A stretch of 18,809 bases of DNA from Photorhabdus cinerea (lineage in GTDB: Bacteria; Pseudomonadota; Gammaproteobacteria; Enterobacterales; Enterobacteriaceae), in NCBI RefSeq assembly GCF_011189575.1, contig NZ_PUJW01000039.1, forward strand, positions 1-18,809, given 5' to 3'. Shown here piece by piece: positions 10,684 through 13,818 of this stretch. Position 1 is the stretch's first letter; each line of letters starts with the position of its first letter. Under the pieces are notes generated by a model that had not been told where the DNA came from, ran no database searches, and worked only from the letters and a program-made list of their open reading frames with translations. The position numbers and the translations under genes were made by a program.

Positions 10684-10710
10684 AGGATTCTCCTAAACAA
10701 TAACAACACA

Positions 10711-10786
10711 AGTATCACTCATAGTAATAAAATAGTCAACACTAACGGTGATTTGTAATTATGACTTTAAGTTATAAAATCTAACG
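10711..10786. promoter_or_regulatory. OR region: two lambda-like operators, pR (leftward) and a probable pRM (rightward, leaderless cI)
   Basis: The operators are TATCACTCATAGTAATA (10713-10729) and CAACACTAACGGTGATT (10737-10753). pR on the minus strand is TTGACT (10739-10734), 17 nt, then GATACT (10716-10711). A plus-strand TATAAA at 10773-10778 lies 8 nt before the cI ATG with no SD, which suggests a leaderless transcript as in lambda pRM. Confidence 0.8.
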
Positions 10787-11245
10787 ATGAAGAAGATTCC
10801 ATTGACAGATAGTCAAATTGATGACGCACAACGTCTCAAAGCGATTTATGAAGCGAAGAAAAAAACATTGGGGCTTTCCCAAGATATATTGGCTGAAAAA
10901 ATCGGAATGGGTCAAAGTGGTGTCACGCAATTATTAAATGCAAAAAATGCAATAAATGTATTCCATGCAGCAAAGTTCGCTAAAGTTCTTGAAATCAATA
11001 TTGATGACTTTAGCCCCTCTCTTGCTGCTGAAATCGCAGAATTGGCAAAATATATCGTTGATAAAAATGGAAAGAATGAGATATCTAAACGTTTAACTCA
11101 AGAACAAGAAGAATTGCTTAATATTTATCATGGACTGCCAAGCGAAGAAGCTCAAAAATTTCTACGCGAGATGAAAGCCAAGAAAGCACATTTTGATAAA
11201 ATTTTTGAAGAGATGCTTGCGAAGAGGGGCAGTAAAGCAGGTTAA
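10787..11245 (+). CDS. cI: CI-like repressor: lambda-CI-type HTH domain with a short helical tail and no S24 peptidase domain
   Basis: The first ~90 aa (PLTDSQIDDAQRLKAIYEAKKKTLGLSQDILAEKIGMGQSGVTQLLNAKNAINVFHAAKFAKVLEINIDDFSPSLAAEI) align with the lambda CI NTD. The protein ends at 152 aa, with no Ala-Gly site or Ser/Lys dyad region. Confidence 0.9.
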   Translation: MKKIPLTDSQIDDAQRLKAIYEAKKKTLGLSQDILAEKIGMGQSGVTQLLNAKNAINVFHAAKFAKVLEINIDDFSPSLAAEIAELAKYIVDKNGKNEISKRLTQEQEELLNIYHGLPSEEAQKFLREMKAKKAHFDKIFEEMLAKRGSKAG

Positions 11246-11442
11246 TGATATAAATTTCAAGTGCAAATATTAACGTGTGAAATTGTTACATTTGTCATGT
11301 TTTTAATAATCAAAGTGTTTCCCGTTCGCGGGGATAATGGCTGTCGAGACTATGCAGCCGCATAAATAGCCGCAAGGTATCCATTAACAAGAAACCAAGT
11401 GTGAGATAAAAACCAATTTATTCAATCCAATAGGAATACTTG

Positions 11443-12294
11443 ATGAAAATAAACTTTTATGCGATCTATTCTCAAAATCAGCGCACTAAAGACAAGTACA
11501 AGTTAGATCTGCTAGATTTACTGAATAAAAAAATTATTGAGCCAAAATCTCATGCTTTAGATTGTGAAACTCACCATCTTTATTTACATCGTATTGATGA
11601 CAAAACGTTTCTTTTTACAAAAACCAGTGATAGCGAGTTAATAAAAAAAATTAACAGATCAAATTCCTCTGTGAAAGACATCAGGGACAGCCTTACTGAA
11701 GACGAATCATTAGGGTTTCCCTCTTTTATCTTCATTGACGGGAATGTGATGGGGTTTGCCTCTTCAATGTACGGCCCTAGAACAAGGGAACTAGCTGAAT
11801 TCGTAAAAAATAAAAACCTTATTCAGCATAAACACCACTATATGGTAGCAGAGCCATTGATGAGAGATATGTCAAAAGATGATGCTCTTAAAATGGATTT
11901 CATTGGTAGGACCACACTAAGAGTTGAGACAGGTAACAGAATATGTAGTGAAATACTAAAAGGGTTAGGCTGCAAAAAAATAGAAGAAGAATTACTCGAC
12001 GGGTTGGAAATTATTATAAAACCCAAAAGAAACAAAGATATAAAAGGCATAACTAAAGATATTATAACCAATAAAAACAATTCATTCAGTGATGTTCATA
12101 TCAAAGCCAGAGAAGAGGCGGCAGATATACTAACTGAGTACTATCTCTCTGGCAAAGGACATCTAGGCGCCAACTTATACAAAGCATCCAATGCAGATGT
12201 TGCTGAAGAAATCCAGTATTGCTTCATTCGAATGAAGACATCTATAATAAAAAGTTTTGATCAAACGTTAGGTGATGAGCTGAAACAAACTTAA
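11443..12294 (+). CDS. rexA: RexA homologue
   Basis: The ATG is at 11443 (the track starts at a TTG). HLYLHRIDDKTFLFTKTSDSELIKKINRSNSSVKDIRDSLTEDESLGFPSFIF, FIGRTT, IKPK and DILTEYYLSGKGHL parallel lambda RexA as recalled (YLYIHKIDGKTFLFTKTNDKSLVQKINRSKASVEDIKNSLADDESLGFPSFLF...). It lies downstream of cI, as in lambda. Confidence 0.85.
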   Translation: MKINFYAIYSQNQRTKDKYKLDLLDLLNKKIIEPKSHALDCETHHLYLHRIDDKTFLFTKTSDSELIKKINRSNSSVKDIRDSLTEDESLGFPSFIFIDGNVMGFASSMYGPRTRELAEFVKNKNLIQHKHHYMVAEPLMRDMSKDDALKMDFIGRTTLRVETGNRICSEILKGLGCKKIEEELLDGLEIIIKPKRNKDIKGITKDIITNKNNSFSDVHIKAREEAADILTEYYLSGKGHLGANLYKASNADVAEEIQYCFIRMKTSIIKSFDQTLGDELKQT

Positions 12295-12306
12295 ATAGGG
12301 GGTTAC

Positions 12307-12744
12307 ATGAGTAGAAAACACAAGGTTAGACTAGCCTTTATCCTCATATTAGTACCCTACTTATTAGTGATCTTGGCTTGCTGCGTGTTTAAGCATTACC
12401 AGCCCGAGCTTTCATTCACAAAGAATAGAGAGGTGCTAGGCGCGGCAATGAGTTCTTATGCTGGAACTACAATAGCAATACTGATAGCAGCCCTGACGTT
12501 TGTTATTGGGCTAAGGGGAAGAAATATAGCTAAACTTGAACGCTATGGATACATGACATCTGTAATTATTATGTATTCACTTAGTTTTGTTGAGCTTGGT
12601 ATTCTTTTCTTTACAGGAGTGCTTTTGATGTCGAATCTGGAAGGGATACCTCTGTCATCGATAGCTATAATCATAGCCGCCTCATCCTTCATGCATATCT
12701 GCTTTCTACTAATTCAACTATTTAATTTCTCTAAAGAACAATAA
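12307..12744 (+). CDS. rexB: RexB homologue (4-TM membrane protein)
   Basis: SSYAGTTIAILIAALTFVIGLRGRNIAKLERYGYMTSVIIMYSLSFVELGILFF parallels lambda RexB (SSYAGTMIAILIAALTFLIGSRTRRLAKIREYGYMTSVVIVYALSFVELGALFF). It is 145 aa with four hydrophobic helices. Confidence 0.85.
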   Translation: MSRKHKVRLAFILILVPYLLVILACCVFKHYQPELSFTKNREVLGAAMSSYAGTTIAILIAALTFVIGLRGRNIAKLERYGYMTSVIIMYSLSFVELGILFFTGVLLMSNLEGIPLSSIAIIIAASSFMHICFLLIQLFNFSKEQ

Positions 12745-12752
12745 ATTCTAAT

Positions 12753-12777
12753 AAGCCACCCACCCGGTGGCTTTTTT
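12753..12777 (+). terminator. Rho-independent terminator of the cI-rexA-rexB operon
   Basis: AAGCCACC-CACCC-GGTGGCTT followed by TTTTT. Confidence 0.8.
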
Positions 12778-12857: not shown

Positions 12858-12923
12858 TATCACTCATAGTAATAAAATATTATCACCGTTAGTGTTGACT
12901 ATTTTATTACTATGAGTGATACT
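12858..12923 (+). promoter_or_regulatory. OL region with three operators and pL (rightward)
   Basis: The operators are TATCACTCATAGTAATA (12858-12874), TATCACCGTTAGTGTTG (12881-12897, close to lambda OL1 TATCACCGCCAGTGGTA) and TATTACTATGAGTGATA (12905-12921). pL is TTGACT (12895-12900), 17 nt, then GATACT (12918-12923). GATACT is also the lambda pL -10. Confidence 0.85.
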
Positions 12924-13056
12924 TCAATCATCAAAGGCACACAAGATAGCGAACAGGCAAGGAAAGCCCACGAAGTAGCCGCTACCGGCGTATGAAAAGG
13001 TAGATGATTCGCAAGTGCTAAGAAACAGACGCAACGAACAATAGAGGATAGTCACG

Positions 13057-13368
13057 ATGAACGCATACAACAACGGCGCATACCACAACAACGCATACCA
13101 CAACGGCGCATACTACAGCTACACATACAACAACAAAGCATACTACAACAACACATACTACGACAACGCAACAATGTACGTAGATAAATTCACGGGTAAG
13201 CAATATCTCGTACAAAACCGCAACAGCGGAAGAGTTACACAGTATGCACCAAACGTACAGGTGTATCACGACTGGTCATGTGAAGATGGCGGCAAATTAT
13301 GCACTACAGTTTTCAAAAGCCGCAAAGAACTAAATAGCTGGCTTCGCATGATGGGATTCAAGAACTAA
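13057..13368 (+). CDS. Hypothetical protein with an N-terminal Asn/Tyr-rich pentapeptide repeat region (103 aa)
   Basis: A GAGGA SD lies 9 nt upstream. The N-terminus is MNAY-NNGAY-HNNAY-HNGAY-YSYTY-NNKAY-YNNTY-YDNATMY, followed by a non-repetitive 60-aa C-terminus (DKFTGKQYLVQNRNSGRVTQYAPNVQVYHDWSCEDGGKLCTTVFKSRKELNSWLRMMGFKN). It is the first ORF after pL. Confidence 0.55.
   Translation: MNAYNNGAYHNNAYHNGAYYSYTYNNKAYYNNTYYDNATMYVDKFTGKQYLVQNRNSGRVTQYAPNVQVYHDWSCEDGGKLCTTVFKSRKELNSWLRMMGFKN
13060..13179 (+). repeat. About eight tandem 15-bp degenerate repeats (GCATAC[C/T]ACAAC[A/G][A/G]C type)
   Basis: It can be read directly: aacgcatacaacaac ggcgcataccacaac aacgcataccacaac ggcgcatactacagc tacacatacaacaac aaagcatactacaac aacacatactacgac. 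The region is CA-rich and in frame with the CDS. Confidence 0.8.
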
Positions 13369-13382
13369 CTAAAAGGAAGTTC

Positions 13383-13430
13383 CGCTCTTTAACAATATGA
13401 CGATTAATCGCTCTGAATAAGTGTTAGAGC
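13383..13430 (+). promoter_or_regulatory. nutL: boxA plus a downstream hairpin (boxB candidate)
   Basis: CGCTCTTTAACAA lies at 13383-13395 (consensus boxA). After 14 nt there is a hairpin, GCTCTGA-ATAAGTG-TTAGAGC (13410-13430, 7 bp including one G-U pair). The spacing matches nutR. Confidence 0.7.
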
Positions 13431-13494
13431 AACCCCACGAGTAGGTTTTGGTGTGGAAGTCCACAACTAAAACTTACTGAGGAGGCAAAAAAAT

Positions 13495-13818
13495 ATGGCT
13501 ACTTCAAACCGTCCTGTTCTCACTCTTAAGAGTCTGGCAGACAGCGAAATTAAACCAACTGTCACTGTTAAGCCCAAAAAAGACAATGCAAAGTCTCGTC
13601 GCCTGGCAAAACAAATGGCTTTTTGGGATAAAAAACGCGCTGAGTATGAAGCAAAACCCAGAAGTCGTTCAGTTGATGAAATTATCGATTCAATTATTAA
13701 GCCAGTCGATGAAACTGATGTCATTGCAAATCTGATTATTGCTTTAAAGAGTAATGATAAGCCGGAAATTACGGGTAGTCGCTGTTTGCAAGATGCTTGG
13801 CTTTATTCAGTTAGATAA
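13495..13818 (+). CDS. N-like antitermination protein candidate (107 aa)
   Basis: It is the first gene after nutL, with a strong GAGGAGG SD, and is 107 aa like lambda N. The basic segment KPKKDNAKSRRLAKQMAFWDKKRAEYEAKPRSRS resembles arginine-rich motifs of P22 N (NAKTRRHERRRK), phi21 N (TAKSRYKARR) and lambda N (RRAEKQAQWK). Confidence 0.5.
   Translation: MATSNRPVLTLKSLADSEIKPTVTVKPKKDNAKSRRLAKQMAFWDKKRAEYEAKPRSRSVDEIIDSIIKPVDETDVIANLIIALKSNDKPEITGSRCLQDAWLYSVR

Follow-up and report, generated by a model that had tools for sequence, protein, structure and literature searches.

A rare family of small basic proteins at the head of phage early operons, with a repeat-bearing member between pL and nutL of a Photorhabdus prophage

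The window, which is the whole of contig C39 (18,809 nucleotides) of a 4.9-Mb Photorhabdus cinerea genome, carries a lambdoid early region in which an additional open reading frame (ORF) lies ahead of the antitermination site; the closest homologues of this ORF are proteins whose source is named as Photorhabdus. On the + strand, a gene for a cI-like HTH protein (10787–11245) is followed by genes for homologues of RexA (11440–12294; Pfam E 2e-60) and RexB (12307–12744; Pfam E 5e-47), and a scan placed an intrinsic terminator that ends this cI–rexAB unit at 12753–12773. The RexA and RexB homologues occupy the slot between cI and pL (11440–12744), which in related prophages holds other two-gene morons (112 aa with 100–101 aa, or 109 aa with 158 aa). 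A promoter scan located a pL-like early promoter, TTGACT-17-GATACT (12895–12923, + strand), inside the OL operator block. The promoter–operator blocks of the pR side (10710–10752, − strand) and the pL side (12882–12924, + strand) are inverted with respect to each other and 100% identical over 43 bp.

The 5′ end of the pL transcript corresponds to a structured leader RNA, modelled as a three-way junction and termed R1 (12940–13021, + strand), which forms the upstream border of an insertion/deletion cassette composed of a Shine–Dalgarno (SD) sequence and the ORF (13035–13362, + strand; borders judged by eye from two compared sequences). The SD sequence, AGAGGA (13043–13048, + strand), ends 8 nt before the ATG. 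The ORF (13057–13368, + strand) runs from an ATG at 13057 to a TAA at 13366–13368 and encodes 103 residues, with an N-terminal Asn/Tyr repeat encoded by a 15-nt tandem array (13060–13174) followed by a conserved basic domain of 64 residues (M40–N103, 13174–13365). The boxA of nutL, CGCTCTTTAACAA (13383–13395, + strand), lies 14 nt past the stop codon, and related loci carry the same boxA at the same relative place. It is followed by the gene for an N-like antitermination protein (13495–13818, + strand; PHROG 271 E 4e-7, and Pfam N_peptide PF25694 at E 0.0086, below the cut-off), and further downstream by small early genes and an exonuclease VIII-like recombination gene. The first-pass annotation had placed an ORF with a good SD between pL and boxA, and all three elements were confirmed at the positions given here.

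The order of boxA after pL, and then a protein whose N function is predicted, is that of a lambdoid pL–nutL–N module, and the window reads as the early-left layout of lambda with an extra element in the leader. The likeness to phage lambda extends to an operator-controlled pL with the lambda-like −10 element GATACT, a nut site containing boxA, an N-like basic protein as the first antitermination-dependent product and a cI–rexA–rexB unit upstream. The difference is that 82 nt of conserved RNA and a 312-nt ORF precede boxA here; to our knowledge, lambda has neither a gene nor a long structured RNA between pL and nutL. A literature search returned no description of a gene in this place, nor of this protein family. 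A preprint on the Pas sRNA and a paper on AgvB (PMC4104026) were considered as descriptions of the locus and set aside, as both concern other loci.

Selection on the encoded protein indicates that the ORF is a genuine protein-coding gene, as the first-pass annotation had proposed. Four independent alleles (72-aa Photorhabdus homologue loci from a search of 5.8 billion proteins, together with one from a genome search) differ mostly by synonymous changes in the core, with dN/dS of 0.09–0.18 (dS 0.6–1.2, dN 0.07–0.12). This purifying selection, together with homologues in the same position in other prophages, makes the ORF more than a chance reading frame. Moreover, the SD sequence and the ATG are kept in the L003, L025/L026, L032 and L040 alleles, and other members of the family start 0–10 residues ahead of the domain.

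The location of the ORF inside a leader, with its stop codon 14 nt ahead of boxA, could also be read as a sign that it acts only in cis, its translation shielding the long leader from Rho and nucleases or placing ribosomes beside boxA, with the peptide irrelevant. However, the amino-acid sequence is under strong purifying selection, the domain is kept at 35–60% identity in Mu-like, Pantoea and metagenomic phages in which a regex scan detected no boxA, and the spacing to boxA varies, with about 90 extra nucleotides in other alleles. The selection on the protein and its conservation where no boxA was detected make a purely cis-acting leader ORF most improbable. The extra segment of approximately 90 nt, which lies between the stop codon and boxA/nutL in alleles of the 72-aa type (L003:1740–1830, L031 and L032), holds a GC-rich tetraloop hairpin, GCCCC-GCGA-GGGGC, that is not present in the window.

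The gene is carried as a promoter-less cassette with its own SD sequence, set between the structured leader RNA and nutL. The nearest prophage, in genome G010, is 97% identical to the window up to 13033 and 92% identical from 13360 on, and the two blocks are adjacent (alignment to G010:C200, query 2–254 at 97% and 581–1061 at 92%, contiguous), with 17 unrelated bases joining the leader to nutL in place of window positions 13035–13362. The gene-less leader also occurs in several other Photorhabdus prophages. Among species representatives, the gene was found in two of 15 from Photorhabdus and in two of 401 from the Enterobacteriaceae, a frequency low enough to imply that phages thrive when the gene is missing.

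It is the 64-aa basic domain, rather than the low-complexity part of the protein, that forms the conserved functional unit. A profile search of 1.84 billion representatives and a second, word-indexed search gathered its homologues into 49 clusters of 54–78 aa (profile E 1e-10 to 1e-31), none of which is named and none of which has a described function or relative. The window protein shares with them, in alignment A3, the D-x-x-x-G-K-x-Y hairpin and the W-L-R-M-M-G-F C-terminal helix of the core. Residues D43, G47, K48, Y50, Q62, W95, M98 and M99 (window numbering) are invariant, and the conserved core further includes D72, S74 and F101. The two cysteines noted in the first-pass annotation are both present in the C-terminal part, but they lie outside the conserved columns of the family alignments. 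The family is basic, with a median pI of 9.9 and a median net charge of +5.5, and 47 of 48 members have a pI above 8.5.

A first AlphaFold run, on the full-length protein with four sequences, was too poor for a fold search. The AlphaFold2 model of the 64-residue core, built from a 48-sequence alignment (pLDDT 91, pTM 0.73), predicts several β-strands arranged as a sheet and then the C-terminal helix. No credible match to this confident core model was found by Foldseek (best E 1.5 in the PDB and 0.18 in BFVD), and a sequence profile search of the PDB gave a best E of 0.51. Scans of the protein and 17 family members against Pfam, PHROGs, NCBIfam and PADLOC yielded nothing above cut-off, and tblastn of three diverse members against 50,697 GenBank phages gave no match. 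The sole signal in the profile scans was a short D-K-x-T-G-K-x-Y hairpin, which aligned weakly to two domains of unknown function; DUF7710 (17.6–18.2 bits against a gathering cut-off of 27) and DUF6440 (12.7 bits against 26.5) were both rejected, the aligned part being the hairpin alone. Assignment as an anti-phage defence protein was likewise rejected, with no PADLOC match at E ≤ 0.1. In an exact-pattern scan of viral contigs, two loci (L055 and L059) proved to be chance matches in unrelated tail-fibre-like DNA. The approximately 49 clusters constitute a new, rare family of small basic proteins whose genes lead the early operons of several unrelated phage backbones.

This position was common to every context read, whether in lambdoid, Mu-like or metagenomic phages: either no gene separates the family gene from an early promoter or ner alone does so, and the early operon is controlled by a repressor or placed at a genome end. 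The Photorhabdus prophages that carry it have at least five different repressors between them (134, 152, 156, 212–214 and 228 aa, with or without an S24 domain), and the order is always repressor, with morons in some cases, then early-left promoter, family gene, and nutL or N. The gene comes first after a cI-like repressor and its promoter in Pantoea, in Yersinia and in one IMG/VR prophage, and a Mu-like prophage of Serratia has it flanked by ner and the transposase gene. Where it occurs on metagenomic phage contigs, a long series of small early genes begins with it, beside a divergent intergenic region or the contig end. We infer that the family is an immediate-early gene across unrelated phage backbones.

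In the window, a scan of the + strand detected no terminator-like site between pL and the ORF, and no second promoter-like or terminator-like site from pL to N. Since the ORF lies upstream of nutL with no terminator before it, its transcription needs no N and it would be the first product from pL. The first-pass annotation had held that the protein is made at once on derepression and independently of N; its position ahead of nutL bears out the independence, and immediate-early expression and its timing are what that position would predict.

The presence/absence polymorphism of this accessory cassette, and its location adjoining other morons, could suggest instead that the ORF is an exclusion or defence moron expressed in the lysogen, like the neighbouring RexAB, rather than a lytic early gene. 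However, it lies downstream of a repressed pL and behind the terminator (12753–12773) that closes the cI–rexAB unit, it has no promoter-like site of its own, and the PADLOC search described above gave no match. Such a role is quite improbable.

The Asn/Tyr repeat is of more restricted distribution than the domain. Tandem Repeats Finder reported a period of 15 nt with 7.7 copies at 13060–13174 (score 118), in agreement with the approximately eight 15-bp units counted previously at the front of the ORF, and also a better-matching super-unit of period 30 (3.3 copies, 84% matches). The in-frame units are NAYN, NGAYH, NNAYH, NGAYY, SYTYN, NKAYY, NNTYY and DNATM, and the tract of 39 residues contains 11 Asn (28%) and 11 Tyr (28%). 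The earlier label of a pentapeptide-repeat gene does not hold as a family assignment: hmmscan of the 103 residues at E ≤ 0.01 gave only the sub-threshold DUF7710 and no match to PF00805. A five-residue periodicity is common to both, but the motif of pentapeptide-repeat proteins is A(D/N)LXX, whereas here it is N-x-A-Y-x, in only eight units that precede an unrelated globular domain. The ORF is the only Asn/Tyr-repeat protein found in the genome.

The repeat is confined to one Photorhabdus subclade and is missing from most members of the family and most Photorhabdus alleles. A single unit, for example M-N-T-Y-N-N-A-T-M-Y-V-D, is found in the 72-aa Photorhabdus alleles and in the other members of the family, and the array is a subclade expansion of a single N-x-Y-N-N-A-T unit rather than a family feature. 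The emphasis previously placed on the low-complexity part should accordingly move to the conserved domain and its invariant early position.

Within the subclade, the array is variable in length. A survey of related prophages found alleles of one unit (72 aa), eight units in two arrangements (103 aa) and ten units (113 aa), all in frame. The second eight-unit arrangement (NAYH, NNAYN, NGAYH, NGAYY...) comes from two IMG/VR contigs that end inside the gene, and the protein would have 103 aa if complete; the 113-aa allele differs by an exact 30-nt duplication. Alleles that bear the repeat come from several assemblies, and those compared show no difference over their last 195 nt, so the array changes faster than point substitutions accumulate, in the manner expected from slippage or unequal recombination. 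The earlier proposal that repeat length varies in frame is thus upheld. As the unit is 15 nt, each change of copy number stays in frame and alters length, and never acts as an off-switch; with alleles of 72, 103, 103 and 113 aa all in frame, the gene is not a phase-variable contingency locus. The array resembles VNTR-type in-frame polymorphisms of bacterial and phage genes, in which unit number differs between otherwise identical alleles, although a unit that is a multiple of three does not make a phase-variation switch. Two assemblies break at or beside the array (L040/L041 at contig ends and L027/L030 at a contig start, with an overlap of approximately 128 nt), which hints at a fork in the assembly graph whose source may be a shared segment or a culture that is heterogeneous in copy number.

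The nucleotide composition of the tract raises the question of whether it matters as RNA rather than as peptide. The tract is 46% A, 34% C, 10.5% G and 9.6% T (A+C 80%, C/G ratio 3.25). Its codons are TAC for 11 of 11 tyrosines and AAC for 11 of 11 asparagines, unlike the core, where TAT is used in three of four Tyr codons. Such exclusive codon use, combined with the strong CA-richness, makes nucleotide-level selection on the repeat possible. The tract might serve as a translational enhancer through ACA/CA motifs, as a segment paired by the GU-rich seed of GcvB with Hfq, whether as target or as decoy, or, when untranslated, as a rut-like Rho-loading segment that would link the translation of the leader ORF with whether transcription gets as far as nutL and N. 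The genome's own GcvB was located (Rfam RF00022, 154.9 bits), and the duplex predicted between its GU-rich region (the R1 region of GcvB) and window positions 13031–13180 has an energy of −32.8 kcal/mol, compared with −27.6 for a one-unit allele. Against a background of 19,994 random 150-nt windows of the genome (mean −21.2, s.d. 3.6), 0.23% score as well. Precedents exist for both elements, in that PMC3879156 describes ACA motifs as enhancers that GcvB silences, and AgvB of EHEC is a prophage RNA that mimics GcvB targets (PMC4104026).

Several observations weigh against an RNA-level role. The predicted GcvB pairing, while suggestive and compatible with GcvB/Hfq pairing, is explained by composition, and in a genome of 4.9 Mb a duplex score of this size is not extreme. 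ARN triplets are seen by inspection in runs of no more than two or three, a well-translated ORF would be shielded from Rho, and the lack of synonymous differences between units, with approximately 10 independent changes, is not significant (hand estimate, P ~0.2). Known anti-sRNAs lie downstream of PR′ and not at pL (PMC4104026). AgvB and the tract are alike as phage-borne RNA segments with predicted GcvB pairing, but AgvB is a 51–60-nt Hfq-bound sRNA downstream of PR′, whereas the tract lies inside a coding sequence at pL and its pairing is a prediction (PMC4104026). Since the tract is missing from most alleles and from all other family members, any such role would be an add-on, and we consider it unlikely that the repeat matters chiefly as RNA.

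At the peptide level, the tract could be taken for a prion-like or amyloid module whose self-assembly would give a threshold or memory effect at the top of the lytic cascade. With 11 Asn and 11 Tyr in 39 residues, short degenerate repeats and a variable copy number, it recalls Asn/Tyr- or Gln/Asn-rich prion-like domains such as the yeast oligopeptide repeats and that of Clostridium botulinum Rho; known oligopeptide-repeat prion domains also vary in copy number. The full-length AlphaFold model draws short β-hairpins through the repeats, but at a pLDDT of 35–68. Typical prion domains are longer than the 39–49 residues of the tract, which is absent from nearly all relatives, and the likeness is one of composition only (28% N and 28% Y in 39 residues). 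A prion-like function is decidedly improbable.

The reading that we favour, and consider probable, is that the ORF is a protein-coding accessory gene of a temperate lambdoid phage, expressed immediately and without N, in which the basic domain is the working part and the repeat tail is dispensable. After infection or derepression, its product would be the first from pL. The 64-residue domain, with its predicted β-sheet, D-x-x-x-G-K-x-Y hairpin and C-terminal helix, would act in trans, perhaps binding nucleic acid or an acidic host protein very early, either to take over the host or to protect the phage on its entry or induction. The Asn/Tyr tract would be a recent in-frame expansion of a few residues ahead of the first strand, its 15- and 30-nt units made and reshuffled by slippage or unequal recombination. 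As a length-variable appendage that is probably disordered or β-prone, it may tune self-association, stability or expression, and it would not be needed for the core function of the family.

First-expressed phage genes are where host-takeover and counter-defence functions are kept. As very small single-domain proteins encoded at the head of the first transcription unit, family members are comparable to T7 Gp2 and the T7 gene 0.3 product (Ocr), which are first-expressed small phage proteins, although there is no similarity of sequence or fold. The family described here is basic, unlike T7 Ocr and many anti-restriction proteins, which mimic DNA and are acidic; its charge argues against a classic DNA-mimic early anti-restriction protein and leaves position as the basis of the counter-defence reading. 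A new family with a confidently predicted but unmatched fold, always in the first-expressed slot, is a well-defined candidate for a takeover or counter-defence function, and the protein is small enough for quick testing. Taken alone, as a single uncharacterized phage gene, the ORF is of moderate interest. Its repeat alleles, however, form a natural series of one, eight and ten units in which the effect of a low-complexity tail on an early phage protein can be studied, and this series, together with the adjacent RNA motif, makes the locus a good experimental entry point. A more elaborate possibility, which we regard as a long shot, is a two-layer immediate-early device in which a pre-N effector, directed at the host or binding nucleic acid, is combined with the lineage-specific CA-rich repeat as a tunable element, acting as an RNA that titrates GcvB or Hfq, as a setter of translation or Rho access at nutL, or as a self-assembling threshold peptide. 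Were this so, repeat copy number would adjust the readiness of the prophage for lytic commitment.

The leader RNA upstream of the gene may be of broader interest than the gene itself. The 82-nt segment at 12940–13021 has short matches in unrelated phages, namely Pectobacterium phage ZF40, Escherichia phage Eeyore and the T5-like Providencia phages PR1 and PSTCR5, and it matches many prophages. In the R1 fold, the three-way junction is composed of P1 (GCGAA/UUCGC), P2, an invariant GGC/GCC hairpin, and P3, a hypervariable stem of 5 bp, with highly conserved joining strands and loops. An alignment of 35 distinct copies has 95.6% of its cells paired, with compensatory changes at 10 of the 15 pairs. 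Its covariation score is 0.542, a value that none of 500 shuffles attains; shuffling gives 0.143, and sliding the partners gives at most 0.10. A covariance model finds four copies in this genome (the window copy and G000 C43:5513–5594, C52:7033–7112 and C60:5316–5397) and copies in 17 of 150 other Enterobacteriaceae genera, or roughly one in nine. Rfam scans of the window and of 12900–13500 at E ≤ 10 gave nothing real, and R1 has no Rfam match. Identity with the put-type antiterminator RNA of HK022 was considered and rejected: with filters off, the best hit of the R1 model over the whole HK022 genome scores 11.3 bits (E 0.53) and lies inside IS903.

Almost every R1 copy read lies approximately 10–20 nt downstream of a σ70-type promoter, often amid operator-like repeats. 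In many cases what comes next is a boxA- or boxB-like element or a second conserved leader module. R1 comes after cI in ZF40 and Eeyore, and the PR1 copy is found in the terminal repeat, upstream of the DNA-transfer gene A2. R1 is a widespread, strongly covarying structured RNA at the 5′ end of phage early transcripts. Candidate roles include stabilization of the 5′ end, binding of RNA polymerase or another factor upstream of nut, and ligand sensing by the leader.

A five-codon mini-ORF (ATG ATT CGC AAG TGC TAA, 13004–13021) overlaps the 3′ strand of P1 in the window; with no SD sequence, and with an ATGA whose conservation belongs to the junction, it is probably untranslated. In the terminal repeat of PR1, R1 is directly followed by a boxA-like CGCTCTTTAAAAA (L043:1573–1585), which suggests Nus-factor-type control of the first transcripts of this T5-like virulent phage. 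The second leader module, of the type ACGTTCCGCC-AGCC-GGCG-A-AA-GGCA with a hairpin, recurs just ahead of the first early gene at L072, L075–L077, L082, L084, L088 and L028/L035, about 10–100 nt downstream of R1 or of the early promoter. A related GTTCTGAC with a CCGG-GAAAG-CCGG hairpin is present in ZF40, in Yersinia and at L079 and L086, and looks like a boxA/boxB variant.
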